From assembly GCA_021399395.1 (NCBI GenBank), contig JAAFKJ010000001.1, positions 7,357 through 71,356 of the forward strand: a DNA stretch of 64,000 nucleotides, in the 5' to 3' direction. This document shows positions 47,464-63,795 of the stretch, piece by piece. The notes below the pieces were generated by a model. The model was not told the origin of the DNA. It made no database searches and was given only the letters and a program-made list of their open reading frames with translations. A program made the position numbers and the translations under genes. This DNA comes from Candidatus Heimdallarchaeota archaeon. Its GTDB lineage: Archaea; Asgardarchaeota; Heimdallarchaeia; Heimdallarchaeales; Heimdallarchaeaceae. The number at the start of each line of letters is the position of its first letter. Position 1 is the first letter of the stretch.

Positions 47464-47477
47464 ACCTTCAAGAATTA

Positions 47478-48281
47478 TCATTGGGAGTTTTTCTTTTCTC
47501 TCATTTCCAATTTGTATTTTTTCAGGAGATTTTTATATTCTTCTGCTTTTTGTCCCGGATCATCAGAATAAACAATTGGACCTCCAACACAGATCATTGC
47601 ATTGTCATCAAAATTGTAAATTACACTTTTTACGATCAGGTGTTCGCTCCCATAAATAGGTGTTAAGGCAAGGATTTTCGATCCTATTGTTTCTTTCATT
47701 TTCCTAACATCTTTAACATCGATATGCTCTGCATTCCCTATCCAAAATCCATCTACTTGAGCTTTCTTACATCTCTCAGCGACATATAGATAGAGAGGTT
47801 GTTCACTTATGGTAGCAATCTTATAGAACATAGATTCTGGATTCGATAACAAGGTAAGAACAATTATTCCTAGTTTTCTTTGTTGAGCAAGAAGTGATGC
47901 CTTAGCTATATTAGCACTAAAAGGAGAAAATGTAAATGCATCAAAATTCTCTTCTTTGAACCAAAAAATCGCGGAATCATTTGAGGTGTCAATGTCACCT
48001 AGTTTATGGTCAATTATTGAAAGCATATTATTCTGGTGAATCAGAATATTGATTGATCTTATTTCATCAGATGTTAATCCGATTAAATATTGTCTATTAA
48101 GCTTGATTGCACAACTGTAAGGAGCAACATTTTTGATTATCCTTTTCATGAAATTAACTCTATCATCATCTAACATTACAGACCTTGAACGTTGAGATGG
48201 TAGAGCTGGATCTAAACTCACACAGAGCAAACTATCTTTGCTCTTAGAGATTGCAAGATATTGCTGGAGAAACTGTGACAT
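47478..48281 (-). CDS. orotidine-5'-phosphate decarboxylase-like paralog with degenerate C-terminal motifs
   Basis: LCVSLDP, AIKLN and IIDHKLGDID (DxKxxD) are retained. PG[VI]GAQGG reads TPIYGSEH, and VGRxI reads VGGPI. Confidence 0.7.
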   Translation of the reverse strand: MSQFLQQYLAISKSKDSLLCVSLDPALPSQRSRSVMLDDDRVNFMKRIIKNVAPYSCAIKLNRQYLIGLTSDEIRSINILIHQNNMLSIIDHKLGDIDTSNDSAIFWFKEENFDAFTFSPFSANIAKASLLAQQRKLGIIVLTLLSNPESMFYKIATISEQPLYLYVAERCKKAQVDGFWIGNAEHIDVKDVRKMKETIGSKILALTPIYGSEHLIVKSVIYNFDDNAMICVGGPIVYSDDPGQKAEEYKNLLKKYKLEMREKKNSQ

Positions 48282-48351
48282 CTATTAATTCCCATGGAGT
48301 TCATAGGAATCAACGTTTATAATTTTTATTTTTGTTTTCTCCATCATTTTT

Positions 48352-48367
48352 TTGCAGTGAAATGCAA
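48352..48367. promoter_or_regulatory. palindrome TTGCA-gtgaaa-TGCAA in the pyrF-like / pyrBI divergent spacer
   Basis: Read directly. It is the third exact copy of the same half-sites and spacing. Confidence 0.5.
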
Positions 48368-48442
48368 TAAAAACCCCTTTTTTCCTAAGAAATCGCATGA
48401 TTTATAACTGAAAATTTCTTTACTGAATTGGAAGATACGAGA

Positions 48443-49360
48443 ATGAATCTCGAACACTTATTTACAATAAGAAGAATGTCCAAAAATCTTATGGAGGACA
48501 TTTTCGATTTAGCTTCTTCTATAGAAGAAAAACCGGATTCTTTTGCTGAAAAATGCAAAGGAAAAATACTAGCTGCTCTCTTTTTTGAACCAAGTACCAG
48601 AACAAGATTATCCTTTGAAAGCGCTATGTTAAGACTTGGAGGACAAATTCTTGGGTTCTCAAGTGCAAAAGTAAGTAGTTCATCTAAAGGAGAGAGTATC
48701 GCTGATACCTTTAGAATGTTAAATCACTACGCGCACATAGCAGTAATTCGGCATTACATCGAAGGGATTGGAGAGATTGCTAAGGAATTTGCTACAATCC
48801 CAATGATATCTGGAGGTACAGGAACACAAGAACATCCGACTCAAGCACTGCTTGATCTTTATACCATAAGGAAGGAACTAGGAAAGGTAGACGATATAAC
48901 GATTGGAATCATGGGAGATTTACTCTATGGAAGAACAATACCCTCTCTTCTTTTTGGTTTAGCTAAATATGATAATGTGAAAGTTCATCTAATTTCTCCA
49001 CCAGCACTACATATACGTAAAAATGTAAAACTGCGCCTGGAAGAAAATGGTCTTGCTTTCAGAGTAACAGAAAATCACAAAGAAGTAATAGATGAACTAG
49101 ATGTGCTGTATGTGACACGCTTACAGAAAGAACGATTTCCTGACCCAACAGATTATGAGAGACTAAAAGGAGCATATCAGATCCGTAAATCTGATTTGAG
49201 AAAAGCAAAAGATAGCATGATAATTTTGCACCCTCTTCCAAGAGTAAGTGAGATTCCTTTTGAATTGGATGAACTAAAATATGCTAAGTATTTTGACCAA
49301 GCAAAAAATGGAGTATGGGTACGAATGGCTCTAATTCTTAAATATCTAGGAGTGGATTAA
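48443..49360 (+). CDS. pyrB: aspartate carbamoyltransferase catalytic subunit
   Basis: FFEPSTRTRLSFE, HPTQALLD, HPLPR. ATG 48443 is preferred; the track's TTG 48428 is possible. Confidence 0.92.
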   Translation: MNLEHLFTIRRMSKNLMEDIFDLASSIEEKPDSFAEKCKGKILAALFFEPSTRTRLSFESAMLRLGGQILGFSSAKVSSSSKGESIADTFRMLNHYAHIAVIRHYIEGIGEIAKEFATIPMISGGTGTQEHPTQALLDLYTIRKELGKVDDITIGIMGDLLYGRTIPSLLFGLAKYDNVKVHLISPPALHIRKNVKLRLEENGLAFRVTENHKEVIDELDVLYVTRLQKERFPDPTDYERLKGAYQIRKSDLRKAKDSMIILHPLPRVSEIPFELDELKYAKYFDQAKNGVWVRMALILKYLGVD

Positions 49361-49831
49361 ATGAATGAAGATAAGAATAAATTGATTGTAAGAAAAATAG
49401 AGAATGGAACAGTGATTGACAGAATTCCTCCAGGTAAAGCTTTGCGCATACTCGAGGTTTTAGGAATAGATGCAAATTACCCATATACAGTTGCACTCGC
49501 TATACGTGTTCTTTCCAAAAAAATGTCTCTTAAAGATGTAGTAAAAATCAAAGGTAAGGAATTAACAGAAAATGAAGTTCATAAGCTCTCATTTATTGCT
49601 CCAGGAGCATCTGTAAATATCATTCAGAATTTCGAGGTTCAGAGAAAAATACAGTTAGAAATTCCTGACCATGTTGAAGAATTTATCAAGTGTCTTAATC
49701 CAAATTGTGTTTCTAATTCCCATGAACCCATAACCTCATCATTTGATATAATTTCTAAAAAACCTTTGATTCTTAGATGTATCTACTGTGATAGAGTTAT
49801 GGAGGACAAATATCTAAGTGGAAAACTATAG
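49361..49831 (+). CDS. pyrI: aspartate carbamoyltransferase regulatory subunit
   Basis: LIVRKIENGTVIDRIP, C-terminal zinc domain CLNPNC...CIYC. Starts 1 nt after pyrB. Confidence 0.9.
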   Translation: MNEDKNKLIVRKIENGTVIDRIPPGKALRILEVLGIDANYPYTVALAIRVLSKKMSLKDVVKIKGKELTENEVHKLSFIAPGASVNIIQNFEVQRKIQLEIPDHVEEFIKCLNPNCVSNSHEPITSSFDIISKKPLILRCIYCDRVMEDKYLSGKL

Positions 49832-51079
49832 GTAGGTACCAATGTCTTTTCTGTAGAAAAGATTCCCTTTTATTTGTGTAATCTTCCTATCATTTTCAAT
49901 TTTAGCAGATTCCAGGTCATCTCCCTTTGTTACAAGAGCTATAGCTCTACTGGATGTTGTTCTGATGGTGCTTTTATCTCGATAAACTGAAGCATAAAAA
50001 ATATCCTTATTTATGGCTGGATCAACCTCCACCGGTTCCTCTTTTACAGGATTTTGTGGATATCCTTGAGGAACTAGATAAGTACATACGGTAGCTTGTT
50101 TCTGAAACTCTGCTTTTGATAAATTCCCGTCTATTATTTGAGAAGCAATTTGCAGGAAATCAGTTTGTAATAATTTTAGAACATTTAGTGCTTCTGGGTC
50201 ACCAAATCTTACATTATATTCAATTAAAAATATACTATCTTCCGTTTTCATAAATTGTCCATACAGAATCCCTTTGAATTTTTCACCTGTGTTCTGATTT
50301 AATGCTTTCAGGGTTTTCTTTATTATATTCAGCGCATCCTTGTAATCCTTCTTTGAAAGGAATGGTAAATTGTGATCAGGAAGACTATATGATCCCATGC
50401 TTCCAGTCAAGGGTCCTTCCTCATTCTCGTATGCTCTTTTATAATCTCTTACCAAAGGCATAGGTAGAATGTTTGAACCATCTGTAAAAACCTGTAAGGA
50501 GAATTCTTTACCCTTCTTCTTCTCTTCAATCAAGTATTCACCTTCGCGGTTAATTAAGGTTTTAACGTACTTTGTTGCTTCATGAATATTTGTTAAATGA
50601 TCACCATAAACTTTTACACCCTTACCCCCAGTTAATCCATCGGGTTTGATGACAAAATCAGTTCCAAATTCATCTACAGCAACATCAAGATCCTCAACTG
50701 ATTTACCAATCATATAAGATACATTTCCAGGAACATTATAAATGTCCATCAAGTAACGAGTAAAAATCTTGCTACTTTCAATTTTTGCTACATTCTGTCG
50801 AGGACCACATGTTGGAATCCCTAGTTTATCTTCTAGATAATCAGTAATGCCATTTGCAAGAGGATTTTCAGGACCAATGATCGCAAAGTCTACATTTCTG
50901 TATTTCTTTAATTTCTCAAAATTATTTAGATCTCCAATACTAAATTTTTTTGATAAATCTGCAATACCAGGATTCTCTCTAGACATATATGAAAAAAGTT
51001 TGGCATCATTCTCTACAATCTTCATTGCAATGGAGTGTTCTCTTGCCCCATTTCCTACAAGTAATACTTTTAACCCCAT
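49826..51079 (-). CDS. purD: phosphoribosylamine-glycine ligase
   Basis: KVLLVGNGAREHSIA, ATP-grasp VIKPDGLTGGKGV, EYNVRFGDPE. Confidence 0.92.
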   Translation of the reverse strand: MGLKVLLVGNGAREHSIAMKIVENDAKLFSYMSRENPGIADLSKKFSIGDLNNFEKLKKYRNVDFAIIGPENPLANGITDYLEDKLGIPTCGPRQNVAKIESSKIFTRYLMDIYNVPGNVSYMIGKSVEDLDVAVDEFGTDFVIKPDGLTGGKGVKVYGDHLTNIHEATKYVKTLINREGEYLIEEKKKGKEFSLQVFTDGSNILPMPLVRDYKRAYENEEGPLTGSMGSYSLPDHNLPFLSKKDYKDALNIIKKTLKALNQNTGEKFKGILYGQFMKTEDSIFLIEYNVRFGDPEALNVLKLLQTDFLQIASQIIDGNLSKAEFQKQATVCTYLVPQGYPQNPVKEEPVEVDPAINKDIFYASVYRDKSTIRTTSSRAIALVTKGDDLESAKIENDRKITQIKGNLFYRKDIGTYL

Positions 51080-51081
51080 GT

Positions 51082-52479
51082 TTAGACCTCTTCATAGTGG
51101 CTTCTGCTTACTAATTCTCCATTCAAGTATCTTATCCGTATTTCTTGTGCATGTTCAGTAGGATAACTACCTGAAAGACATGCAGTACATAAGTCAGAAA
51201 ATCCGATAGATTTTTTCAAAGATTCAATGTTTTGATAGTATAATTCATCCACATCCAGAATTTGTTTCATTTCTTCAATTTTGTATCCGGAAGCGATCAG
51301 TTCATCATCAGTAGGAAAATCAATTCCATAATAACAGGCAAATCTAATAGCAGGACAAGTGACAGCTAGATAGATCTTTTTTGCACCTAGTTTTCTAAGG
51401 TCCTTAATGATTTTCTGGCTTGTTAATCCTCTTACAATGGAATCATCTACAACAAGGATATTTCTATCTTTAATGAAAGTTGGAGTGTAGAGATATTTTC
51501 TCTTAGCTACGCTTGTTCTCTCTTCCTTACTTTTCATAATGAAAGTTCTCTGAAGATATCTGTTTTTGATAATTGCTTCTCTAACCGGGATGTTGAGAAC
51601 CTCTGATAGACCTTGGCTTGCAGGTCTAGATGTATCTGGAACAGGTACAATGAAATCAATTTCAAGTTCAGATTTCTGAATTCTATGTCCTAACTCTCTA
51701 CCAAGTTCTAACCTTACATCATACACTAACCTCTGTTCAATATATGAACATGGATGTGCAAAATAAACAAACTCAAACATACAATGAGCATGATCACGTT
51801 GAACTATACTGGTATGTTTAACATCGTTTTTATTGATAAAAACTAATTCACCAGGTTTAACATCTTCGAATTTCTCTATTCCTAAATTTTGAAGAACGAC
51901 GCTTTCTGATGTAACTAGAGACACATTTTCAAACTTCCCCATTACTAGAGGTCTCAAACCTCTTGGATCTCTAAATGCAAACAATTGATCATTAAGAATA
52001 CCAATAATTGAATAACTTCCATCTATTGATTCCATAAATGCTCTTACTGCCGCTTCAATATCTCCTTTCATTTTATTAATTTGCATCCCTAAGAAATCAA
52101 CAACAAATCTAGCATCTGATTCGTATGATTGTTGTGTTAGAGAGGAGAGATTGGTAACATTTCCATTATGTACAATCGACAAGCTTCCAGATTCTGTTTC
52201 AAATGAGAATGGTTGTGCATATGTTTCTATATTGGAACTATCGGTTCTTGTACCAAAAGTAGGATATCGTGTTGCACCAAGTAGAGATCTAGTTTCTATT
52301 TTCTCATCTATTTCAAGTAAATCGGGATAACTATCTGATTTAGAAGTAATCAGACTAGCTGTGGATTCATCATACCAAGCTAAACCACTGGCATCCTGAC
52401 CTCTGTGTGTGAGCATCTGAAGCAGTATTCGGCCTTGTCCCAAGGTTGTTAATCCTTTGATTCCTAAAACTCCACACAT
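51082..52479 (-). CDS. purF: amidophosphoribosyltransferase
   Basis: N-terminal MCGVLGI (Ntn Cys), HRGQDASG, PRT loop ILVVDDSIVRGLTS. Confidence 0.93.
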   Translation of the reverse strand: MCGVLGIKGLTTLGQGRILLQMLTHRGQDASGLAWYDESTASLITSKSDSYPDLLEIDEKIETRSLLGATRYPTFGTRTDSSNIETYAQPFSFETESGSLSIVHNGNVTNLSSLTQQSYESDARFVVDFLGMQINKMKGDIEAAVRAFMESIDGSYSIIGILNDQLFAFRDPRGLRPLVMGKFENVSLVTSESVVLQNLGIEKFEDVKPGELVFINKNDVKHTSIVQRDHAHCMFEFVYFAHPCSYIEQRLVYDVRLELGRELGHRIQKSELEIDFIVPVPDTSRPASQGLSEVLNIPVREAIIKNRYLQRTFIMKSKEERTSVAKRKYLYTPTFIKDRNILVVDDSIVRGLTSQKIIKDLRKLGAKKIYLAVTCPAIRFACYYGIDFPTDDELIASGYKIEEMKQILDVDELYYQNIESLKKSIGFSDLCTACLSGSYPTEHAQEIRIRYLNGELVSRSHYEEV

Positions 52480-53085
52480 TTATTCCACTATCCTAGCTTT
52501 ATTACTATATACCTGTATTTTCCCTAAAGAGAAGAGTGAAATTGCTTTAGGTAGTAACACATGTTCTTCTCTCAAAATCCTATCAGCAAGTTCTTTCTCT
52601 GAATCCTCACTGTATACCTCAACACATTTCTGCAGAATAATGGGTCCTTCATCAACTGTTTCAGTTACAATATGAACAGTACAGCCTGAGATTTTCACAC
52701 CAAAGTCTAATGCTTGTTTTTGCGCTTTTAGCCCAGGAAAAGAAGGAAGTAGGGAGGGATGTATATTGATGATTTTGTTCTTATACTTAGATATAAAATT
52801 CGAGGATAAGATCTGCATGAATCCTGCGAGAACTATGAACTCAATTTTATTGTGTTCAAGTATTTCTAAAATTTCGCTCTCTTGTTCACAATAATCAAGA
52901 TTCTTTTTATCGACAATAGCTGTTTGTTTGTGACTTCTTTGAGCAATTTCTAATCCTTTTGCTTCAGGATTGTTTGATAGTACTAAAACAATTTTAGTTT
53001 TCCCCAAGCTCTTCTCTTCTTCTGCTTTCAGAATAGCTTCAAGGTTTGTTCCTCTTCCAGATATTAAAACAGCTGTTCTCATCAT
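52480..53085 (-). CDS. purN: phosphoribosylglycinamide formyltransferase
   Basis: AVLISGRGTNLEAIL, INIHPSLLP, GCTVHIVTETVDEGPII. Confidence 0.9.
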   Translation of the reverse strand: MMRTAVLISGRGTNLEAILKAEEEKSLGKTKIVLVLSNNPEAKGLEIAQRSHKQTAIVDKKNLDYCEQESEILEILEHNKIEFIVLAGFMQILSSNFISKYKNKIINIHPSLLPSFPGLKAQKQALDFGVKISGCTVHIVTETVDEGPIILQKCVEVYSEDSEKELADRILREEHVLLPKAISLFSLGKIQVYSNKARIVE

Positions 53086-53086
53086 C

Positions 53087-54121
53087 TCACCTCGTAAATA
53101 TCACATTATAGTCTTGAATTTTAACAATAGGATCCGTGATAATCTCACCGATTATTAGCGAATCAAAGTGTTTTGAAAGAGTTTCGAGAGCTTTTTGAGC
53201 ATTATTTTTGGAAACAATGACAACGAAGCCTATACCCATGTTGAATATGGAGAACATTTCTTGGTAGTCTATATTCCCTACAGATTGAATCTCATGAAAT
53301 ATTTGTGGGATGTTGCACCATTTGTCGATTTGAAAACCAAGATTTGTTATTCGAAATAGTTTCTTAAAACCTCCACCTGTGATATGAGCAAGTCCATTTA
53401 TTTCGCAATTTTCTGATAAGTCTTTAATTGCTTCAGTGTATATTCTTGTAGGAATTAGCAATTCCTCTCCTACATTTGTTCCCCATGGAAAACTTTCATT
53501 GTATTCATATTTAATAGATAAAACTTTTCGAAGTATAGTAAAACCATTAGAATGAATCCCACTACTTGTTATCCCTATGATTACATCTCCAACTTTTATT
53601 TTAGAACCATCTACAATTTCTTTGATATCAACTATTCCGAGTGCAGTACCAGCAAGATCAAAAGAATTGATGTTAGTTGATAGAAGCTCTGGTATTTTCG
53701 CCAGCTCACCTCCTATCAGAGGTATTTTTGCCAGCTCACAACCTTTCAAAATTCCTTGCATGATACCATCTATAACATCTTCTTGAAAGTCTGAAACTGC
53801 TAGATAATCAACAAAAGCACTTGGTTGAATTCCCATTGCTAGAAGATCATTAACATTCATTGCAACACAATCTATACCCACAGTATCAAACTTTCCAGTT
53901 TTTTGGGCTATAAGCAGTTTAGTTCCAACTCCATCAGTTGCTAAGGCCAGTCCATAATCTCCAAATTTAATCAGATTAGCATAATGACCTTCTTTAGATA
54001 CAACATTTCCAAGTTCAAAGCTACTTTTCACATACTTGTTGATATTCTTCAAAATCCTAGCTTCTTTAGATAAATCTATTCCAGCCTCAGCATAAGTATT
54101 AGGTATATTCTTTTCAGTCAT
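53087..54121 (-). CDS. purM: phosphoribosylformylglycinamidine cyclo-ligase (AIR synthetase)
   Basis: YAEAGIDL, LATDGVGTKL, GIDCVAMNVNDL, SSGIHSNGF, AHITGGG. Confidence 0.93.
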   Translation of the reverse strand: MTEKNIPNTYAEAGIDLSKEARILKNINKYVKSSFELGNVVSKEGHYANLIKFGDYGLALATDGVGTKLLIAQKTGKFDTVGIDCVAMNVNDLLAMGIQPSAFVDYLAVSDFQEDVIDGIMQGILKGCELAKIPLIGGELAKIPELLSTNINSFDLAGTALGIVDIKEIVDGSKIKVGDVIIGITSSGIHSNGFTILRKVLSIKYEYNESFPWGTNVGEELLIPTRIYTEAIKDLSENCEINGLAHITGGGFKKLFRITNLGFQIDKWCNIPQIFHEIQSVGNIDYQEMFSIFNMGIGFVVIVSKNNAQKALETLSKHFDSLIIGEIITDPIVKIQDYNVIFTR

Positions 54122-54140
54122 TGAATTCCATCTCCCATAA

Positions 54141-54539
54141 TTATCTTACATTATTGAAATTGATAAGCTTAAGAATTCGAATCGATAGATATGCAGCATT
54201 TTCTCCGTTATCAATCCCTACTGTTGCAACAGGTACCCCTTTAGGCATCTGAACCATGGACAATAGTGCATCCATCCCATTCAATGCTGCCGACACTGGA
54301 ACCCCTATTACTGGTTTTTTTGTCAAAGATGCTACAACTCCAGGTAGAGCTGCTGCTAAACCAGCTATGCAAACGAAAATATGTGCTTTAGAATTTTCTA
54401 CTTTAACTACTAATTTATCGTGATCTCTATGAGCAGAAATATAGCTCACTTTGAAATCGATTGAGTGTTTTTCCAAAACACTTGTAACTTTTTTAACTAT
54501 TTTTTCATCACTTTTGCTTCCCGCAATTATTTCTATCAT
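54141..54539 (-). CDS. purE: phosphoribosylaminoimidazole carboxylase catalytic subunit / N5-CAIR mutase family (short, 132 aa)
   Basis: [31 protein letters not shown]. No purK in the window. Confidence 0.88.
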
Positions 54540-54540
54540 A

Positions 54541-56718
54541 TTATTCCTCCATAAATCTTGAAATCGCTTTTGACCAGCTTTCCCTTAGTTCTTTCAGATC
54601 AATACTAATCTCATCATCAATTCTAATTTCAGGTGTAGAAATTGTTTTTCCGAGAATCTTATAATCGTCATCTTTCTTCAAATTCTCTTTAATATACTCT
54701 AGTTTTGATTGTGATATTTCTACAACATATCTAGTTGGAGCTTCTGCAAAAATAAACTCTTCAATGGATAGATTCTCCTCTTCTAGAACATTGTTTAAAG
54801 ATAATTCCACACCAATATTTTTATCAAAAGCCATTTCAATGAGAGATGTAATTAGCCCCCCATTTGATATATCGTGGCAACTTAAAATGAGTTTTTCATT
54901 ATTTAATTTCTCGATAATCTGCCTTGATTTCATTTCTTTATCGAAATCATAAGTTGAGATTTTTCCCTCTATTTTACCATGATTATATCTCAGATATTCA
55001 GAACCATTCAAGTTTCCATCATTAAATCCAATCGAGATAATTATGCTATCTTCACTCTGAAAACTGTTCTTGATAAGTTGATTTGGCTCTTCAATTATTC
55101 CAATCATACCTATTGTGGGTGACGGATTAATGCGATCCTTCTTTCCAGCAATTGAAGATTCATTATAGAATGAGACATTCCCACCAACTATCGGTAATGA
55201 AAAATCCTTAGAAAATTGTCCCAATCCTTTTACAGCTTCTACAAATTGCCAATACGAATCTGGGTTTTCTGGATTACCAAAATTTAAGCAATCGACAATA
55301 GCTAATGGTTTGGCACCTACACATACGAGATTCCGCATCGCTTCTGCTGCATTGTTTGCAGTTCCATTGAATGGGTCTAGATAAGTCATGAAAGAATTAC
55401 AATCCAAAGATAGGGCTATGTATTTTTCATTTTCCAATTTTAACACAGCAGAATCAGATCCTGCAGCGATTACTGTCTGAGTCTGTACATGTTGGTCATA
55501 TTGTTGATAAACCCAGGATTTATCTCCAATATTTGGTGAAGACAATAGCTTCAAAATCTCTTCTTTGATATTTGGAGAGATTGGCACAGTGTATGATATC
55601 TCATCAGACACATAATCAGGAATTTCAAGAAGTCTTTCAGGTTCTGGGCAACCTTCAACAACTAGATCTACTGGCAATTCCACGACTTTATTTCCCTCAA
55701 AGAATGCGATATAATGACTATTGTCTGTAACCTCTCCTATTACTGAAGATTGTAAATCATATTTATCCAAGATTTCGCACACTTTTGATAGTTTCTCAGA
55801 ATCTACAATTGCAAGCATTCTTTCCTGAGATTCAGAAACAAGGATTTCCCAAGGTTCCATGTTTTTCGCTCTTAAGGGAATATCTTCTAATCGTATTATT
55901 GCACCAGTTCCTCCTCGAGAACACATTTCAGTTACACCGCAACTCAATCCACCTCCACCTAAATCCTGCAAACCAGCAAGTAGTTCTTCTTCTACTAGCT
56001 CAAGCGTAGCATCAATGAGGATTTTTTCCATTAGTGGATCCCCGATTTGAACTGCAGGTCTATCTTTCTCGCTTTTATCACTTAGATCCTTTGATGCAAA
56101 AGAAACACCATGAATTCCATCTCTTCCAGTTGACGAACCATACAGAACGAGGAAACTTCCAGGTTTTGATGCAATACTTCTAACTACTTTTTTCTTATCT
56201 ATTACTCCCACACACATTGCATTAACTAAACAGTTTTCTTCAAAAGGTTGAGCAAATTCAACTTCTCCTCCTAAAGTTGGTATTCCGCAACAATTTCCAT
56301 AAAATGAAATTCCTCTCACTACATTTTCAAATAGATGTTGAGACCTCTTAGATTCTAATTCTCCAAATCGAATAGAATCTAATAGTGCTACTGGTCGACA
56401 TCCTTGAGAAAGTATATCTCTAATTATTCCACCTACACCTGTTGCAGCACCATCATAAGGTGAAATTGCTGATGGGTGATTGTGACTCTCCAAACCCAAA
56501 CCAACTAAAAATCCATCTCCAATATCAATTAAACCTGCACCTTCACCAATTCCCAGTTCTAAGTATGGAGCTTCTGTATTGAATAAATGAAACCACCTCT
56601 TAGATGATTTATAGGAGCAATGCTCAGACCACATTGCTTCAAATACAGCTATTTCAGCTTCGTTTGGTTCCCTTTCAAGAGAATCTTTAATTGTACCATA
56701 TTCTTCAACAGTTAGCAT
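54541..56718 (-). CDS. purL: phosphoribosylformylglycinamidine synthase subunit II
   Basis: [30 protein letters not shown], 725 aa. Confidence 0.93.
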
Positions 56719-57401
56719 GTCAATTCCTCTTTTAAATTTTCAAAAATTATTTTTCCATCTTCTGATCCTAAATACAGAAAGCTGGCTCTTTCGGGATGGG
56801 GCATCATGCCTAACACATTGCCAGTTTTGTTAACTATCCCAGCTATATTTTCCAATGAACCATTTGGATTGCTTTCCTCATTAATTTCCCCCTGTTCATT
56901 GCAATAACTAAAGGCTATCTGATTATTATTTCCTAGCCTCTGGATGTTCGCTGGTTCGGAATAATAACGGCCTTCATAATGAGCAATTGGGAGCTTGAGT
57001 TTTTTATTTTCCATGCCTTTAAGTAAGGAGCATGAAGTTTGTTCAGTAGAGATATTTACCCACTTGCAGATGAATTTTGTAGAAGTGTTTGTAGTAAGTA
57101 TTCCAGGCAGTAATCCTAATTCACAGAGTATCTGAAAACCATTACAGATACCAATTACAAATTTGCCTGATTCAACATACTCTGGAAGTTTTTTTGCTAT
57201 AGGTGAATGAGATGCTATTGCACCTGGTCTTAGATAATCACCATAAGAGAACCCTCCTGCAATTATCAAAGCATCAACTTCTTCTAGAAGTTCAGAGTTA
57301 TTGGGAAAGATGTACTCATACCGAAGTCCCAGTGAACTTAAAACCCTAGCTACATCTTGTTCGTTATTTGTTCCTGGAAATTTAGTTATACCAATTTTCA
57401 G
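56712..57401 (-). CDS. purQ: phosphoribosylformylglycinamidine synthase subunit I (glutaminase); the start appears to be a non-canonical CTG
   Basis: GICNGFQIL (Cys nucleophile) and MPHPERA. The frame upstream of the track's ATG (57269) stays open and encodes (L)KIGITKFPGTNNEQDVARVL...DALIIAGGFSYGD, the conserved PurQ N-terminus. An in-frame TAA lies directly before CTG 57401..57399, and GGGTGAT lies 4 nt upstream. Confidence 0.85.
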   Translation of the reverse strand: MKIGITKFPGTNNEQDVARVLSSLGLRYEYIFPNNSELLEEVDALIIAGGFSYGDYLRPGAIASHSPIAKKLPEYVESGKFVIGICNGFQILCELGLLPGILTTNTSTKFICKWVNISTEQTSCSLLKGMENKKLKLPIAHYEGRYYSEPANIQRLGNNNQIAFSYCNEQGEINEESNPNGSLENIAGIVNKTGNVLGMMPHPERASFLYLGSEDGKIIFENLKEELTC

Positions 57402-57406
57402 TTATA

Positions 57407-58390
57407 TCACCCTTCGTTAGATGTCTCGAAATATTCCATGGATAACTTGGTTTCTTCAATCAAAGGATTTGAGAGAATTCTGTTGGATATTTCTTGTGTT
57501 TTTTTGTAAAGTGATTCAGAAGGAACGGATGAAAACTTGATACTAGCGTTTTTACCAAGTCTAACTGATTCAATATTCTCATATTCATTCCGTTTTAATG
57601 ACCTAAAAGTAACTTCACCGGCTGGGTCGAGAACTGAATCCTTTAGAGAAATCCGAATATTGGTTTTGGTGTTGAACTCTATATTAGGAAGTTCTGTGAT
57701 TGTTTCCAATCTTTCAAGTATATCCTTATAGTGTTGAATGACATCTCCAAGATCTTTTCGATATCTATCCTTATCCTTAATTTCCCCAGTATTAATTTCC
57801 CATAACCTCATTGTATCAGCTGAAATTTCATCTGCTATAATCAGTTTACCCTCATGACTTCTACCAAATTCAAGCTTAAAATCCACAAGTACAAGTGAGA
57901 TTGACTTGAATATATTTCTTAGAATATGATTCACTGCTAAAGTAACAGCTTTAATTATAGTTGCATCTTCACCCGATAGGTAGTTCATCAAGATTGCTGC
58001 TTCTTCTGTAATTAATGGATCATGTAATTCATCTTCCTTCAAAAAGAACTCAACTAAAGGTTGATCGAAGTTTGTTCCAATCTCAATCCCATATCTTCTA
58101 CAAAAACTTCCAGCAGCTATATTTCTACAAACTATTTCTACGGGAATTATATCGACTTTTTCACAAAGTAAATCTCTACTCGATATACTCTTGAGATAAT
58201 GTGTTTCTATATTATATTCATTCAAAATCTCAAATAGTTTTGCAGAAGTTCGGCAGTTAACTTCACCCTTATTCAGAAGTTCTTCTGTTTTTTCTCCATC
58301 AAATGCAGAAATCGAATCTCTAAAATGGATTTTAACTTCCTTTTCATCCAGAAGTTCTATATCTTTTGCTTTTCCAGAGTATCTCTCCAA
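57407..58390 (-). CDS. purC: SAICAR synthetase fused to a C-terminal PurS domain
   Basis: Residues 1 to ~235: YSGKAKDI, DSISAFDG, LVDFKLEFG (PurC). Residues ~241-327: IRISLKDSVLDPAGE...VRLGKNASIKF...ILSNPLIEE, matching PurS (compare VSLKESVLDPQG...VRIGK...LLANTVIED). TTG start. Confidence 0.88.
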   Translation of the reverse strand: MERYSGKAKDIELLDEKEVKIHFRDSISAFDGEKTEELLNKGEVNCRTSAKLFEILNEYNIETHYLKSISSRDLLCEKVDIIPVEIVCRNIAAGSFCRRYGIEIGTNFDQPLVEFFLKEDELHDPLITEEAAILMNYLSGEDATIIKAVTLAVNHILRNIFKSISLVLVDFKLEFGRSHEGKLIIADEISADTMRLWEINTGEIKDKDRYRKDLGDVIQHYKDILERLETITELPNIEFNTKTNIRISLKDSVLDPAGEVTFRSLKRNEYENIESVRLGKNASIKFSSVPSESLYKKTQEISNRILSNPLIEETKLSMEYFETSNEG

Positions 58391-58403
58391 ATTTTACACC
58401 ACT

Positions 58404-58419
58404 TTGCATTATTTTGCAA
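58404..58419. promoter_or_regulatory. palindrome TTGCA-ttattt-TGCAA (extends to TTTGCA/TGCAAA), just upstream of the purC-purS start
   Basis: Read directly from the sequence. It lies 13 nt from the TTG start of the minus-strand pur operon. Confidence 0.55.
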
Positions 58420-58548
58420 ATTAATGACTTTTTGAAACTGGGAATTTTAGTATGTATAGTTTTTAAACTTTCTGGATAATACTATTAAAAAACCTATAGA
58501 ATCAACTTAAGGGTTTATGAAAATACACAAATATAAAAAGATAAGTTC

Positions 58549-58564
58549 TTGCACAGTAATGCAA
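58549..58564. promoter_or_regulatory. palindrome TTGCA-cagtaa-TGCAA upstream of the HTH-PRTase gene
   Basis: Read directly. It lies about 9 nt downstream of the TATA-like ATATAAAAAG (58531..58540) and about 50 nt upstream of ATG 58614. Confidence 0.55.
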
Positions 58565-58613
58565 AACCTTTTCAATGATATGAAAAGGACTATATTGAAA
58601 AACAAGTGATATT

Positions 58614-59393
58614 ATGTCAAATGCAAGCACACCTGATAGTTATATTGATGCTCAAGAGAAACTAATGACACTTAATCTTCTTCAGATGGCCTTTAAAAAA
58701 TTCGACACTCTTGAAACATGCAGATCATTTCTTCAAGAACATGGGGTTGAGGTTTCTGTTGCAAACCTTTCTAGATATATCAACGGGAAAGCAATTCCAA
58801 AATCAAAACTCAAAAATTCTTTGCTCAAAGTCCTGATAGACAACAAAGAACTTGGTTTAACAATTAAAGAGCTCATAATCAAACACTTAGATATCAAGAC
58901 CGATGAAACAGGTATGATTACAGTAAACAATACCTATTTGCTAAATGACTCAAAAACCTTGAAAGCGATTTTATTTCTAGCAATCCAACAAGGCATTATT
59001 CCAAGAGAGGTTGATAAAGTGATAACTGCTGAAGTTGATGGAATTCCAATTGCAATGACTCTTGCTCATCTTCTTAACATTGATTGTGTTTATGCAAGGA
59101 AGAAGAAACCCATTGGTACCTCTGAGTTTCATAGTGAGGATATTATTTCAGCGAATACTAGTAGAATGGAGACAATCTATTTTCCAGATAAATTCATCAG
59201 AAAGAATGAGAGGGTTATAATCATCGATGACATTATTCGCTCAGGTGCAACACAAACGGCACTAGTTAATCTTGTAAATAAATGTGAAGGAATTCCTCTA
59301 AAAATCATCATACTAACTGGTGTTGGAGGACACTGGGAAAAAACTACTAAATTAAAGTTTACTGATTTCAAAACTCTAGTTACTCTAAAATAA
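58614..59393 (+). CDS. XRE-type HTH domain fused to a type I phosphoribosyltransferase domain; putative nucleotide-biosynthesis regulator
   Basis: N-terminal VSVANLSRYINGKAIPK (Cro/C1-like HTH recognition helix). C-terminal PRPP-binding loop VIIIDDIIRSGATQ. It lies divergent from the pur operon, 16 nt upstream of purP. Confidence 0.7.
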   Translation: MSNASTPDSYIDAQEKLMTLNLLQMAFKKFDTLETCRSFLQEHGVEVSVANLSRYINGKAIPKSKLKNSLLKVLIDNKELGLTIKELIIKHLDIKTDETGMITVNNTYLLNDSKTLKAILFLAIQQGIIPREVDKVITAEVDGIPIAMTLAHLLNIDCVYARKKKPIGTSEFHSEDIISANTSRMETIYFPDKFIRKNERVIIIDDIIRSGATQTALVNLVNKCEGIPLKIIILTGVGGHWEKTTKLKFTDFKTLVTLK

Positions 59394-59409
59394 CGGCAGA
59401 TGGTGTTAT

Positions 59410-60492
59410 ATGATTCAAGAACTGATAAAACAATATGATTATGAGAACATTAGTGTAGGAGTAATTGGATCCCACTCTGCTCTCGATATATTAGATGGTG
59501 CAAAAAAAACAAGATTCAAAACCACAGTAATTTGCGAAAAAGGAAGGGAAGAGCCCTATACAAGATTTGATAGGATCATAGATAATTTGATAATTTTAGA
59601 TAAGTTCTCGGACATATATTCAATCCAAGAGGAATTAAGAGAAGAGAATTGCATTTTCGTACCAAATCGTTCTTTTGCCGTGTATTGTAATACAAACCGA
59701 ATTGAAAAAGAATTTAGAGTGCCTTTGTTCGGTTCAAGAGAACTCCTAAAAGTTGAGGAAAGGGTAGGACTGCACAATTATTATGAAGTACTAGATGCAG
59801 CAAAAATAAAATATCCTAAAACTTTCAAAAATCCAGAGGAAATTGATTGTCCAGTCATATGCAAAATGCCTCATGCTAAACTTGAAGTTGAAAGAGGTTT
59901 CTTTGTAGCAAAAGATAAAGAAAATTTTTTTGAGGAATTCAATAAGCGTGTCGAAAATGGTACAATAAGAAGAGGTGATCTTTCTAAGGCATCGATAGAA
60001 GAATTCATTTCTGGTGTTACATTCAATTTCAATATCTTTTACTCCCCGATATATAATCGAACAGAATTAATTGGGATAGACCGTCGTTTTGTTACAGATC
60101 TAGATGGAATTGTACGTTTGCCTGCGGAACAACAACTTCAACTAGAACTTGAAGAAGAAATGAAAGAGATAGGCAACTATGCTGTTACTTTAAGAGAATC
60201 AATGTTAAGACACGTATTTCCAATGGCAGACGACTTCGTTAAAGCAACAAAGAAACTCTATCCTCCGGGCATTATTGGCCCATTTGCGCTTCAAACCATG
60301 ATAACTAAGGATTACGAATTCATAGTATTCGATGTATCCATGAGAATGGGTGGTGGAACAAATAGTTTCATGGGGACAGGCAGTCAATATTCAGCTGTTT
60401 ATTGGGGAGAACCAATCTCAGCAGGTAAGCGAGTTGGAATGGAAATAAGAAGAGCCGTTGAACAAAACAGATTGCAGTATATTGTAACTTGA
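59410..60492 (+). CDS. PurP-family ATP-grasp protein (5-formaminoimidazole-4-carboxamide ribonucleotide synthetase family), divergent paralog
   Basis: VIGSHSALDILDGAKK, VPLFGSRELL, PPGIIGPFALQ, GGGTNSF. Confidence 0.8.
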   Translation: MIQELIKQYDYENISVGVIGSHSALDILDGAKKTRFKTTVICEKGREEPYTRFDRIIDNLIILDKFSDIYSIQEELREENCIFVPNRSFAVYCNTNRIEKEFRVPLFGSRELLKVEERVGLHNYYEVLDAAKIKYPKTFKNPEEIDCPVICKMPHAKLEVERGFFVAKDKENFFEEFNKRVENGTIRRGDLSKASIEEFISGVTFNFNIFYSPIYNRTELIGIDRRFVTDLDGIVRLPAEQQLQLELEEEMKEIGNYAVTLRESMLRHVFPMADDFVKATKKLYPPGIIGPFALQTMITKDYEFIVFDVSMRMGGGTNSFMGTGSQYSAVYWGEPISAGKRVGMEIRRAVEQNRLQYIVT

Positions 60493-60526
60493 GAGTACTA
60501 ATAATCGTAAAAAGAAAATGAAGAAT

Positions 60527-60576
60527 ATTCAACATTCAAAGGATTACACTGAAGAATTCTTCGAATGATGTTGAAT
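60527..60576. repeat. nested inverted repeat between the two purP paralogs
   Basis: Outer arms ATTCAACAT (60527..60535) and ATGTTGAAT (60568..60576). They enclose the perfect 12-bp palindrome GAAGAATTCTTC (60551..60562). Confidence 0.6.
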
Positions 60577-60616
60577 GTTAGACTAAAGAAATAAAAACAG
60601 TTTCAAAAACTACGAT

Positions 60617-61621
60617 GTGAATAACTTGATAATCTCAACCATAGGAAGTCATTCCGCACTTCAAATATTATTTGGAGCTAAACAAGAGAATTTCAATACC
60701 AAAGTATATTGCTTAAAGGACCGAGATAGTCTTTACCGAAGATATCCCGTCGCAAATGAAATAGTCACACTTGATTCTTATGAAGATCTTCTAGAAATTG
60801 CTGCTGATTCCCAAGAAATTTTTATTCCTCATGGTACTCTGATTGCGGCTCTAGGAGACAAATTAAGGGACATTTCTATACCTATGTTTGGAAATAGAGA
60901 GGGGATGTTGTGGGAGATGAATCGAGCAAAGAATCAAAAACTTCTGGAAACTGCAGGAATTAGAGTTCCTCGAACACTGAAATCTGATGATATCACCGAG
61001 TTAGCGATCGTGAAATTTCCAGGAGCTATGGGTGGTTCAGGGTATTTTGTTTGCTCCTCCTCTGATGAATTCGATACCAAAATTAATGATTTAGTCTCTC
61101 AAAATAAGATCTCAGATTATGACATTAAAAATGCCCAAATTCAAGAGTATGTAACTGGAGTAACTATGTATCCCCATTACTTCTATTCTGGGATCTATGA
61201 AAGAGTTGAGATGCTTGGAATAGATAGGAGATATGAAACCAACGTAGATGCGCTAGGTCGATTATCTCAGAACGATCATCCAGTTGAACCCTCATATAAG
61301 GTAGTTGGGAATCAACCTTTAATTGCAAGAGAATCTCTATTACCACAAATCCTAGAACATGGTGATAAATTGAGGGAAGCTTCAACAAATCTTTTTGCAC
61401 CAGGTTTGATAGGTCCATATTGTATAGAAATGGCCATTACATCAGAAGAGATAGTTGCTTTTGAATTTACTAGCAGAATTGTAGCGGGTACAAGTTTGTA
61501 TGTAAACGGTTCACCTTATTCAAAGATCTTATTCAATGAAGAAATGAGTATGGCTAAGCGTATTGCAAGGGAGATAAAAATGGCAATGGGGCAAAGAAGG
61601 CTGCAGGAGTTCCTTACATAA
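60617..61621 (+). CDS. purP: 5-formaminoimidazole-4-carboxamide-1-(beta)-D-ribofuranosyl 5'-monophosphate synthetase
   Basis: STIGSHSALQILFGAKQ, IPMFGNRE, VKFPGAMGGSGYF, ARESLLPQ, APGLIGPYC, MAKRIAREIKMA. GTG start. Confidence 0.85.
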   Translation: MNNLIISTIGSHSALQILFGAKQENFNTKVYCLKDRDSLYRRYPVANEIVTLDSYEDLLEIAADSQEIFIPHGTLIAALGDKLRDISIPMFGNREGMLWEMNRAKNQKLLETAGIRVPRTLKSDDITELAIVKFPGAMGGSGYFVCSSSDEFDTKINDLVSQNKISDYDIKNAQIQEYVTGVTMYPHYFYSGIYERVEMLGIDRRYETNVDALGRLSQNDHPVEPSYKVVGNQPLIARESLLPQILEHGDKLREASTNLFAPGLIGPYCIEMAITSEEIVAFEFTSRIVAGTSLYVNGSPYSKILFNEEMSMAKRIAREIKMAMGQRRLQEFLT

Positions 61622-61632
61622 AAGGTGATGAA

Positions 61633-63141
61633 ATGGATAAAATCGGAGTATTTGATTTTGGTGGCCAATATTGCCATCTTATTGCTAGAAGGATTAGAGA
61701 TTTAGGTGTTTATGCTGAGATAATCTATGAACCTTCTCAGGAGTACAAAGGTTTCATTTTATCAGGGGGACCGGGTAATATCTCTGAAGAAGAAGCACCC
61801 CAATTACCAGAAGAATTCTTCAATGAGGTGGAAGTACCAGTTCTTGGGATATGTTATGGTCATCAAATGATTGCACAGACTTTTGGAGGAAAAGTTGAAA
61901 GAGGGAGAGAAAGAGAATACGGGAAGAAAACAGCCATTCTTGAAAACTCTTCTTCTTTGTTTAAGGGTTTGAATAAGGAGGAACAAGTCTGGATGTCACA
62001 TTATGATCAAGTTACGATTCTACCTGATGATTTCGATGTCATTGGTTCAACTGACATCTGTGGAATAGCAGCATATCAAAACATCCACAAAAATATTTTT
62101 GGGGTCCAATTTCATCCAGAAGTCATTCACACTATAAATGGCACTAAAATTCTTAAAAACTTTTTAGATATTATTGGATGTAAGAGAGAATGGAAACTAA
62201 GTCAATGGGTGGAAAAGAAAATACACGAACTGCAAACAGAGATAGGTTCTAACAGAGTAATCATGGCAGTTAGTGGAGGAGTAGATAGTACAGTAGCTGC
62301 TGCACTTCTAACTAAAGCTAAGATAAACGCTCATTTCATACATGTAGACACTGGTCTCATGAGATTGAATGAATCAGAGGAAGTAGCAAAAATTTTCGAG
62401 GATTTGGGCACGGAAAACCTTCATATTGTAGATGCTAAAAAAAGATTTTTTAAGAGATTAGAAGATATCTCTGATCCAGAATTAAAGCGGAAGATAATTG
62501 GAAACCTCTTTATCGATATTTTTGAAGAAGAATCTGATAGATTAGACAATTTTGATTTCTTAGGACAAGGAACAATATATCCAGATAGAATAGAAAGCGC
62601 TCAACCAAGTAAACATGCAAGTGTAATCAAAACCCACCATAATGTTGGTGGTCTTCCTGAAAGAATGAAGTTAAAATTAATTGAGCCTCTCAATGAGCTT
62701 TACAAGGATGAAGTCAGAAAAATAGGCGAGATGTTAGGTCTTCCAAAGAGATACATTGATAGACACCCATTCCCAGGTCCGGCTCTTGCAATCAGGATCT
62801 TAGGCATAGTTACTGAAGAGAGAGTGGATATATTAAGAAAAGCTGATGCGATTGTTACACAAATCATAGAGAATAATGGTATTTATGATTCTCTTTGGCA
62901 AGTTTTTCCTGCACTCATCCCTGTTAAATCTGTAGGTGTGATGGGAGATAAAAGAACATATGAATATATCTTAACCATTAGAGCTGTTGAATCAGTAGAC
63001 GCGATGACAGCTGATTGGGCAAGATTAGATTATGATGTTTTAGAAGAAATATCCACAAAGATCATCAATAAAGTAAATGGTGTGAATAGAGTCCTATATG
63101 ATATCACCAGCAAACCCCCAGGTACAATTGAATATGAATAA
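61633..63141 (+). CDS. guaA: GMP synthase (glutamine-hydrolysing), with GATase and ATP-pyrophosphatase domains fused
   Basis: GICYGHQ, FHPEV, SGGVDSTV (PP-loop), C-terminal KPPGTIEYE. ATG is preceded by AGGTGATG. Confidence 0.93.
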   Translation: MDKIGVFDFGGQYCHLIARRIRDLGVYAEIIYEPSQEYKGFILSGGPGNISEEEAPQLPEEFFNEVEVPVLGICYGHQMIAQTFGGKVERGREREYGKKTAILENSSSLFKGLNKEEQVWMSHYDQVTILPDDFDVIGSTDICGIAAYQNIHKNIFGVQFHPEVIHTINGTKILKNFLDIIGCKREWKLSQWVEKKIHELQTEIGSNRVIMAVSGGVDSTVAAALLTKAKINAHFIHVDTGLMRLNESEEVAKIFEDLGTENLHIVDAKKRFFKRLEDISDPELKRKIIGNLFIDIFEEESDRLDNFDFLGQGTIYPDRIESAQPSKHASVIKTHHNVGGLPERMKLKLIEPLNELYKDEVRKIGEMLGLPKRYIDRHPFPGPALAIRILGIVTEERVDILRKADAIVTQIIENNGIYDSLWQVFPALIPVKSVGVMGDKRTYEYILTIRAVESVDAMTADWARLDYDVLEEISTKIINKVNGVNRVLYDITSKPPGTIEYE

Positions 63142-63160
63142 AATGATAAAGGTTAGAAAA

Positions 63161-63769
63161 ATGAAAGCAAATTTGCAAGAACTGACAAAGCAGATTATTA
63201 AGCAGGGAATTTTGAAGTTTGGCGATTTTACCTTGAAATCAGGTAAAAAATCCTGGTTCTATCTCGATTTAAGATTGATATCATCTTTTCCAGATACTTT
63301 TAATTTCGTAATCAAATGTTATAAAAAGAAATTAAAAGAAATAGGTAAATATGACGCTGTAGTAGGTGTAGCTGTAGCTGGTGTGCCTTTTTCTGCTGTT
63401 TTGGGTTACACTTTGAACATTCCCTCCTTAATTATAAGGACGCAAAAAAAAGATCATGGTTTGAGGAATAAAATTGAGGGGTTTCTTCCAGAAAAATCAA
63501 CTATTGTTCTCATAGATGATTTAATAACGACAGGTTCTAGCAAAATTCCTGGCATACTTGCATTACGTGAAATGGGATATGTTGTAAAAGATATGTTGGT
63601 TTTAGTTGACCGAAGCCAAGGTCATAGTGGTCAAATTGATCAACTAGGAGTAAAACTTCATTCATTTGCTTCAATTGAGCAGATATTTACAGAAAGCCTA
63701 CATCTTGATGATGACATTTTAGATGAGAAAACAAGAGAAATTATAGCTAAAAATCTTAGAACCGATTAA
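63161..63769 (+). CDS. pyrE: orotate phosphoribosyltransferase
   Basis: GDFTLKSGKKSWFYLDLR, PRT loop IVLIDDLITTGSS. Start is ATG 63161 or 63143; the track's 63098 overlaps guaA. Confidence 0.88.
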   Translation: MKANLQELTKQIIKQGILKFGDFTLKSGKKSWFYLDLRLISSFPDTFNFVIKCYKKKLKEIGKYDAVVGVAVAGVPFSAVLGYTLNIPSLIIRTQKKDHGLRNKIEGFLPEKSTIVLIDDLITTGSSKIPGILALREMGYVVKDMLVLVDRSQGHSGQIDQLGVKLHSFASIEQIFTESLHLDDDILDEKTREIIAKNLRTD

Positions 63770-63795
63770 GCAAGATACCTTCATGAACAAATCCG

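Follow-up and report, generated by a model that had tools for sequence, protein, structure and literature searches.

Transcription factors that use a phosphoribosyltransferase (PRT) fold as a sensor are known from bacteria and from archaea. The bacterial system used for comparison here is PurR of Bacillus subtilis and Lactococcus lactis (TIGR01743; PDB 1O57, 1P4A and 7RMW), in which a PuR_N domain (PF09182) is joined to a PRT domain; the B. subtilis protein is a repressor, and that of L. lactis is said to activate. The archaeal one is Haloferax volcanii GfcR, a characterised transcription factor with an N-terminal helix-turn-helix (HTH) and an inactive PRT-fold sensor, which activates sugar catabolism genes and binds KDPG (2-keto-3-deoxy-6-phosphogluconate), FBP (fructose-1,6-bisphosphate) and similar ligands, not 5-phosphoribosyl 1-pyrophosphate (PRPP) (PMC10838023). 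Little is known about the transcriptional control of archaeal nucleotide synthesis: what our literature searches turned up was confined to global factors, such as TrmB, that touch haloarchaeal purine genes, with no dedicated archaeal regulator of purine or pyrimidine genes. Here we analyse a gene, which we call REG, in a 64,000-nucleotide stretch of contig JAAFKJ010000001.1 from a Candidatus Heimdallarchaeota archaeon (the window; 34% G+C). Its product is 100% identical to GOP50_00330, an NCBI entry from a Candidatus Heimdallarchaeota metagenome-assembled genome (MAG). A note made earlier from the window alone, here the original prediction, proposed REG as a PRPP-sensing regulator of nucleotide synthesis. 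This hypothesis is strengthened by independent comparative evidence, all of it computational. On balance, and with modest confidence, we favour the reading that REG would be a dimeric transcription factor, with an XRE-type HTH and a PRT domain, that binds the palindrome TTGCA-N6-TGCAA at the pur operon, at its own operon and at pyrF/pyrBI; we are less sure that PRPP specifically would be its ligand. Coordinates are collected in Table 1.

Table 1. Positions, in the window, of REG, its domains, the candidate control sites and the genes around them
Feature	Position	Strand	Basis or remark
HTH-PRT protein gene (candidate regulator, REG)	58614..59393	+	open reading frame (ORF), 259 aa
XRE/Cro-type HTH domain (predicted), residues ~6-76; HTH helices 33-42, 49-56	58629..58841	+	AlphaFold, family invariants, HTH_3 in relatives, weak Foldseek and profile matches
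C-terminal type I phosphoribosyltransferase (putative effector) domain, residues ~93-259	58890..59390	+	PF00156, Foldseek, phmmer
PRPP-motif loop VIIIDDIIRSGATQ, residues 201-214	59214..59255	+	alignment to PurR, family conservation
Site A, palindrome TTGCATTATTTTGCAA, candidate pur operon operator	58404..58419	.	14 nt upstream of purC-purS start codon (58390, -)
Site B, palindrome TTGCACAGTAATGCAA, candidate autoregulatory operator	58549..58564	.	50 nt upstream of REG ATG; invariant island in nine-genome alignment
Third exact palindrome TTGCAGTGAAATGCAA	48352..48367	.	pyrF(-)/pyrBI(+) spacer
TATA-like box TTTAAAAA, preceded by purine-rich AGAAAG	58460..58467	-	invariant block TTAATAAA/TTTTTAAA in nine-genome alignment; probable orientation
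purC/S-purQ-purL-purE-purM-purN-purF-purD, putative target operon	49826..58390	-	ORFs and NCBIfam; order kept in L003-L008
purP, purP', guaA, pyrE downstream of REG	59410..63769	+	ORFs and NCBIfam; order kept in L001, L003-L008
Putative pyrimidine targets: pyrF-like 47478-48281 (-), pyrB-pyrI 48428-49831 (+)	47478..49831	both	NCBIfam; palindrome between

By sequence comparison, REG is a divergent Heimdallarchaeaceae branch of the pan-archaeal HTH-PRT family NF006328/PRK08558. That model, named 'adenine phosphoribosyltransferase', is its best NCBIfam match (E 1.2e-37), aligning residues 15-240 with model positions 9-218 of 238 at 129.7 bits, below the 184-bit cut-off. All 60 diverse relatives matched both NF006328 (best E 2.8e-86) and PF00156, and REG has the family's architecture, an N-terminal XRE-type HTH plus PRT domain in about 230-260 aa. 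An exhaustive profile search returned 2,816 cluster representatives at E<=0.001, 115 of them at E<=1e-30 and mostly full-length at 230-260 aa. Among the pattern matches listed (one genome per species) at least 401 relatives were confirmed, coming from Heimdall-, Hod-, Odin-, Jord-, Njord- and Baldrarchaeota, Bathyarchaeia, Methanomethylicia, Methanomicrobia and Thermococci. Every cultured member of the Thermococcales that was listed has the gene. Pyrococcus furiosus AAL81859.1, P. horikoshii BAA30803.1 and Thermococcus gammatolerans ACS34449.1 are members, and REG is 32% identical to a Thermococcus member over 225 residues, the HTH included (E 2e-32). Source names for the family are 'adenine phosphoribosyltransferase', 'phosphoribosyltransferase family protein' and 'helix-turn-helix domain-containing protein'. 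Because one Pyrococcus MAG entry is called 'purine operon repressor', and the UniRef names of the P. horikoshii and T. gammatolerans proteins are 'HTH cro/C1-type domain-containing protein' and 'Adenine phosphoribosyltransferase, fused to N-terminal DNA binding domain (PurR)', annotators have evidently noticed the HTH-PRT architecture already.

The original prediction had read the N-terminal region as a Cro/C1-like HTH and quoted two peptides, both of which are present in the ORF: ANLSRYINGKAIP at residues 50-62 (nt 58761-58799) and the PRPP loop listed in Table 1. An AlphaFold model of the whole protein, built from 22 homologues (predicted local distance difference test, pLDDT, 91.3; predicted template-modelling score, pTM, 0.88), places helices at residues 6-27, 33-42, 49-56, 64-74 and 84-89 ahead of a Rossmann-like PRT fold. 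Whether the N-terminal region models as an HTH had been set beforehand as a test. Modelled separately, residues 1-95 form a five-helix bundle (pLDDT 91.3) whose top Foldseek matches, each weak (E>1), come almost entirely from proteins of lambda-repressor-like or XRE type: EspR, HigA2, MqsA, POU, TP901-1 CI, SinR, P22 c2 and DdrO. A profile of the domain gave weak matches in the PDB, mostly to HTH proteins (E 0.04-1). Among the full-length diverse relatives, 38 of the 60 matched HTH_3 (PF01381; best E 1.1e-8) and 7 matched HTH_31. The family varies little or not at all at R54, Y55, G58 and P62; the pattern R54-Y55-x-x-G58-x-x-x-P62 is the one that typifies the Cro/C1 recognition helix with the turn after it, and S-R-Y-x-x-G-x-x-x-P aligns with the HTH_3 hallmark. 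The N-terminal domain thus appears to be a five-helix XRE/Cro-type HTH, of a class other than PurR's winged helix, and PuR_N was found neither in REG (E<=1) nor in the family matches listed at E<=0.01 for its 60 relatives. Because the DNA-binding domains differ in type while the sensor domain is like that of PurR and xanthine PRTs (XPRT), the REG and PurR fusions seem to be independent, as had been suggested.

The C-terminal domain has the type I PRT fold expected of it. It contains the sole Pfam domain in REG (PF00156, residues 125-236, E 2.4e-9), and adenine PRTases (APRT) match it in Foldseek with a TM score of 0.83 on the target. Its best PDB relative by sequence is the PRT domain of PurR (phmmer, E 9e-11; next best 1e-6), in keeping with the proposed parallel to PurR's layout of DNA-binding plus PRT domains. 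Full-length B. subtilis PurR matches the REG model over 240-268 columns with a root-mean-square deviation of ~13 Å, implying that both domains match but that their mutual orientation differs. The alignment of REG with PurR (1p4a/1o57) runs ungapped for 108 residues, PurR residue n corresponding to REG residue n+2. The ribose and 5'-phosphate loop is kept in REG (D205 D206 ... R209 S G211 A T213): D205/D206, R209, G211 and T213, all invariant or nearly so across the family, align with PurR D203/D204, K207, G209 and T211. In PurR, D203 sits beneath the PRPP ribose, and D203A cuts PRPP competition 100-fold; T211 holds the 5'-phosphate and, with G209, is part of the 5'-phosphate loop; K207 is Arg in some other PurRs (PMC8789054). 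Because these positions are conserved, the 5-phosphoribosyl pocket is kept in REG, and it is this loop that points to PRPP as a possible ligand.

An intact PRPP motif would also suit an enzyme. REG might be mainly an active adenine or xanthine PRTase, its N-terminal helices serving oligomerisation or having some other non-regulatory role, or it might be bifunctional like PyrR. The source annotations say 'adenine phosphoribosyltransferase'; the core, flexible-loop region included, can be aligned ungapped with proteins of PurR/XPRT type, and the scores of XPRT models are close to that of PurR's; and purine salvage fits a purine gene cluster. We nevertheless regard an enzymatic role as improbable. 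REG lies far under every enzyme equivalog cut-off, with 40.3 against 185.9 bits for apt (TIGR01090), 55.5 against 164.5 for XPRTase (TIGR01744) and 44.2 against 200 for HPT_Archaea (NF040646). Its N-terminal domain is kept across archaeal phyla with HTH_3 signatures and the invariant R54-Y55...G58...P62, which an inert extension would not retain, and conserved palindromes, described below, flank the gene. The 'APRT' names have apparently been propagated from the model name, and we found in the literature no assay of adenine phosphoribosyltransferase activity for the NF006328 family.

REG scores below the cut-offs of the regulator and regulator-like models too. The PurR model (TIGR01743) matches residues 125-231 at E 4.4e-16 and 58.7 bits against a cut-off of 258.7; GfcR (NF045507) gives E 0.0017 and 17.9 bits against 300; and the PyrE-like model NF002620 gives 38.3 bits against 115. 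Only one of the 60 family members matched a PyrR model, and that marginally. REG is analogous to PurR and GfcR and a member of neither family. The original prediction knew of no characterised archaeal purine regulator of this type; that stands for the NF006328 family, of which none was found in the literature, but GfcR, from another subfamily, is characterised (PMC10838023), and REG proves to sit in a large archaeal family. A role in defence or as part of a toxin-antitoxin pair was considered and rejected: the PADLOC matches are weak and local to the PRPP loop, and the context is biosynthetic.

That context is consistent among Heimdall relatives, in which the REG-family gene lies inside pur or pyr clusters in 17 of 17 loci. 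In the window the minus-strand pur operon is immediately upstream of REG and divergent from it, and only 16 nt separate the REG stop codon from purP, so that REG is probably co-transcribed with purP, purP', guaA and pyrE. ORFs and NCBIfam matches thus confirm the gene order that had been described. Further left, pyrB-pyrI is divergent from the pyrF-like gene. Where the Heimdall gene instead faces pyrF, pyrK and pyrD lie just downstream of it.

These clusters also share the palindrome TTGCA-N6-TGCAA. The window holds three exact copies against 0.14 expected, a number reached in none of 100 shuffles, and all three are in pur/pyr spacers. Pooled DNA from related Heimdallarchaeaceae, 329 kb in all, has 13 exact copies where 0.55 are expected (maximum 3 in 200 simulations), every one within a REG, purC, pyrF or pyrB spacer and none elsewhere. 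Set against 60 composition-matched control palindromes, it ranks first; the runner-up has 6 copies and the median is 0. The divergent purC/REG arrangement recurs in L001, L003-L008, L011 and L013, and sites A and B recur alongside it as TTRCA-N6-TGYAA, 141-164 bp apart, in spacers whose N6 and surrounding DNA have diverged. Aligning the spacers of nine genomes leaves 37 invariant columns in three clusters: site A with its T-rich flank, the TATA-like box and site B. L002, where REG is divergent from pyrF rather than purC, has two exact palindromes. Among pyrB loci gathered via PyrB homologues, the palindrome upstream of pyrB is exact in L081, a pyrF/pyrB spacer, and likewise in L082 despite a different upstream gene, and degenerate in L083.

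What recognises the palindrome? Its half-site centres are 11 bp apart, one helical turn, a spacing that would suit a dimeric HTH protein on one helix face. Because the arms are conserved in sequence, with single transitions only and no compensatory changes, recognition by protein is favoured over an RNA stem. An alternative would have the palindromes be real elements bound by another factor, or hairpins formed by the leader RNAs of purC and REG, with REG regulating something else, such as only itself or ribose-phosphate salvage. The palindrome can indeed form a hairpin in purC-sense RNA, with an extension that pairs with the GGUG Shine-Dalgarno (-8.1 kcal/mol, z -2.6), and G-U pairing is kept in the sense RNA by two of three variant classes; a different binder would sit well with the other genomic contexts of the family elsewhere. 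We give this alternative very little chance. Both arms keep their sequence, not merely their pairing, while the loop varies; the third variant class (L011, L013) breaks the sense-RNA pair; and folding of the three palindromes gave modest z-scores of -2.6, -1.7 and -0.1, the last, for the pyr site, amounting to no signal. The Rfam scan of 47000-64000 at E<=1 returned one spurious snoRNA match only, so no known riboswitch explains the conserved spacers. As to another binder, the 11-bp spacing fits a dimeric HTH protein, and REG is the sole recognised DNA-binding protein among the annotated genes of these clusters.

The position of the sites relative to promoters bears on how they might act. The conserved box between sites A and B, which in relatives reads AGTAAAA-TTTATTAA, is likely to be a pair of TFB recognition element (BRE) and TATA box facing purC, and thus a candidate pur operon promoter. 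The purC transcription start would then lie near 58437, with site A spanning roughly +18 to +33 and directly followed by a conserved GGTG Shine-Dalgarno; such a position downstream of the TATA box would be repressor-like. For REG, the original prediction had placed the palindrome over the gene's own transcription start. Site B is indeed upstream of REG, but relatives do not keep the TATA box then presumed (ATATAAAAAG, 58534-58543). Immediately downstream of site B there is instead a TATA-like element, which L004-L008 show clearly (TTTATAAA) and the window weakly; site B therefore probably abuts the REG BRE/TATA, just upstream of the promoter, rather than covering the start site.

These observations suggest a one-component transcription factor, with an XRE-type HTH fused to a PurR/XPRT-type PRT-fold sensor. 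Type I PRTs are usually dimers, and in a REG dimer the two recognition helices would each meet a half-site of TTGCA-N6-TGCAA, with such palindromes beside the start of the purC operon, upstream of REG at the head of purP-purP-guaA-pyrE, and between pyrF and pyrBI. Given candidate sites at these three places, REG would autoregulate and, in this Heimdallarchaeaceae clade, co-ordinate the de novo synthesis of purines with that of pyrimidines. Occupation of the phosphoribosyl pocket would alter DNA binding. The most economical ligand would be PRPP, a substrate common to PurF and PyrE, and the likeliest logic, by analogy with B. subtilis PurR, would be repression relieved by PRPP. The scope of a putative 'master regulator' is drawn here from three sites within one 64-kb window.

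Several observations weigh against this model. At the level of the protein, REG alone gave no Pfam HTH match reaching threshold and no HTH_3 match at E<=1, and the Foldseek matches of its N-terminal domain are individually insignificant. The literature yielded no experimental study of any NF006328-family member, so the family name is uninformative on function. REG and the palindrome are linked only by co-location, and another factor could bind; moreover, the promoter geometry is ambiguous between repression and activation. Co-occurrence of gene and palindrome, which the original prediction proposed as a check, holds for the purC/REG spacers and L002 but breaks down in the short pyrF/REG spacers of L009, L010, L012 and L014-L017, from which the palindrome is absent. 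It is also absent upstream of pyrB in the more distant, Heimdallarchaeum-like L084 and L085. With these absences and the degenerate copy in L083, extension of the palindrome to more distant Heimdall genomes was rejected, and the motif appears to be specific to a subclade.

Further points against it come from other archaea. In the loci examined outside Heimdallarchaeaceae, the family gene is not beside pur or pyr genes. Its neighbour at +1 or +2 in 36 non-Heimdall loci (within L020-L080; Bathyarchaeia, Baldr-, Odin- and Hodarchaeota, and Methanomethylicia) is an mtnA-like S-methyl-5-thioribose-1-phosphate isomerase gene, usually convergent. A palindrome census of 60 upstream regions of non-Heimdall members found none in common bar tRNA-derived repeats, and a shared operator across those members was rejected accordingly. 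Other conserved neighbours are a tRNA-splicing endonuclease gene (endA) and a 444-aa protein read by eye as hisS; a dCTP deaminase gene is just upstream in ten loci. The isomerase and deaminase neighbours hint at an ancestral role in ribose-phosphate or nucleotide salvage. Only the Heimdallarchaeaceae branch is embedded in pur/pyr clusters and carries TTGCA-N6-TGCAA: the link to nucleotide biosynthesis is consistent within Heimdallarchaeaceae, and the operator, perhaps the regulon, is lineage-specific.

The identity of the ligand is less sure than the link between regulator and operator. The original prediction had proposed checking whether the catalytic PRT residues are retained; the ribose and 5'-phosphate loop is, but in the pyrophosphate (PPi) loop REG has Asp142 where APRT has Arg and PurR has Lys. 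Because Asp142 replaces a basic residue, PRPP-specific binding is uncertain, which counts against the model as first drawn. It is thus possible, though on the whole unlikely, that REG is a DNA-binding regulator of these operons with another effector: a nucleoside monophosphate co-repressor (that of inosine, guanosine, adenosine, uridine or orotidine; IMP, GMP, AMP, UMP or OMP) or another phosphorylated ribose compound, for instance ribose-1,5-bisphosphate. Only the part of the pocket for ribose and 5'-phosphate is demonstrably conserved, and an mtnA-like ribose-phosphate isomerase is the neighbour in other phyla. The PurR pocket takes guanosine tetraphosphate (ppGpp) too (PMC8789054), and GfcR, which adds glycerol-3-phosphate to its ligands, is not expected to bind PRPP (PMC10838023). 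On the other side, PRPP is the common substrate of both site-bearing pathways, with purF and pyrE in the putative regulon, and the effector of the domain's closest solved relative; nor is there any positive sequence sign of a base-binding pocket. PRPP remains our preferred candidate.

Some further features of the control regions stand apart from this argument. One-mismatch copies of the palindrome occur inside coding DNA at 48543-48558 (~+100 in pyrB) and 60472-60487 (the last purP1 codons), with counterparts at the same relative positions in L081 (pyrB) and in L001 and L003 (purP1); they may be auxiliary operators or mere coding constraint. The purP1 site was set aside, as it overlaps a C-terminal peptide conserved in the window, L001 and L003, so that its conservation may be a coding constraint. 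An intergenic one-mismatch palindrome in the purP1/purP2 spacer is found only in L004, L006 and L008, as TTACATGGATTTGCAA or TTACATAGTTTTGCAA. In the window, that spacer holds a long imperfect inverted repeat, ATTCAACATTCAAAGG...GAAGAATTCTTC...ATGTTGAAT (60526-60578; -20.9 kcal/mol, z -2.9), for which Rfam has no family. An 8-bp inverted repeat, CCTTTTCA-atgata-TGAAAAGG (58567-58588), lies immediately downstream of site B, 26 nt ahead of the REG ATG; analogous CTTTTTC...GAAAAA(G) repeats occupy this position in L001 and L002. The repeat may form a leader hairpin or serve as a second protein site. The pyrF/REG spacers of L009, L010, L012, L015 and L016 share a 40-nt block with a perfect 11-bp palindrome, AACAATTTGTT, beside a ATATTTAA box, which may be a different operator or simply a promoter.

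The genes around REG also show some peculiarities. purC and purS are fused in one 327-aa ORF (57407-58390, minus strand; PurC residues 4-214, PurS 242-319), a fusion kept in related Heimdall loci. The two tandem purP paralogues (59410-60492 and 60617-61621), for formate-dependent 5-aminoimidazole-4-carboxamide ribonucleotide (AICAR) formyltransferase, fall below the NCBIfam equivalog cut-offs; archaeal purP duplication is without an established explanation (PMC3261824). The pyrE ORF as called (63098-63769, plus strand) overlaps the end of guaA (63141) by 44 nt, and its homology to orotate PRT begins at about residue 33; an internal ATG is probably the true start. Several Heimdall genomes keep, just upstream of the pyrF/pyrB region, an unannotated protein of ~286 aa and a protein of ~190 aa with weak zf-RING_2 and zinc-ribbon Pfam matches (window 46891-47463, plus strand; L081 1885-2457; L082 3392-3925; L083 3326-3910). 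NCBIfam has no match for either.

If the model holds, a family present in Asgard archaea, Bathyarchaeia, Thermococcales and others would be a metabolite-sensing transcription factor, though it is labelled an enzyme in essentially every genome; this locus would give the family its first operator motif and target set, and a widespread annotation error would be corrected. We put forward the whole of this only tentatively, as a claim we rate below an even chance: that this is the first defined regulon of a pan-archaeal XRE-HTH/PRT family mis-annotated as adenine phosphoribosyltransferase, that the family senses PRPP or a related phosphoribosyl metabolite and, in Heimdallarchaeaceae, co-ordinates purine with pyrimidine de novo synthesis, and that it is a third independent fusion of PRT sensor and DNA-binding domain after PurR and GfcR. 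The idea is unsurprising given PurR, and annotators have hinted at it; the operator, the joint pur and pyr target set and the family-wide annotation problem are concrete and testable. Orthologues in cultured Thermococcales (Pyrococcus, Thermococcus) make the hypothesis testable without Asgard culture.

Overall, REG resembles known systems without coinciding with any of them. Like PurR, it joins an N-terminal DNA-binding domain to a C-terminal, catalytically derived PRT effector domain; the two have in common the ribose-binding Asp pair, the Gly and Thr of the 5'-phosphate loop and a basic residue at the position of PurR K207, and both genes are linked to purine biosynthesis genes and are probably autoregulated. 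They differ in that REG has a predicted XRE/Cro-type five-helix HTH where PurR has the PuR_N winged helix, in domain orientation as judged by Foldseek superposition, in the candidate operator (a 16-bp palindrome rather than a PurBox pair) and in the inclusion of pyrimidine genes in REG's putative regulon; being archaeal, REG must also act on a promoter served by TATA-binding protein, transcription factor B (TFB) and RNA polymerase. GfcR, likewise an HTH plus PRT sensor, demonstrates that such a layout is workable with the transcription machinery of archaea (PMC10838023), but it belongs to the orotate-PRT-like subfamily (PyrE-like PRT), outside which REG falls. Bacillus PyrR is another protein of PRT fold, one that responds to metabolites of the nucleotide pathways and governs the genes of pyrimidine biosynthesis; unlike REG, it lacks a DNA-binding domain, binds hairpins in leader RNA and has kept its uracil PRTase activity. 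With its own family, NF006328, REG shares full-length homology, architecture, similar length and the invariant RY..G...P and DD..R.G.T motifs, and it is set apart there by its score below the model cut-off, its place in pur/pyr clusters and its TTGCA-N6-TGCAA sites. The PRT-sensor/DNA-binding design would, on this comparison, have arisen repeatedly with different DNA-binding domains.

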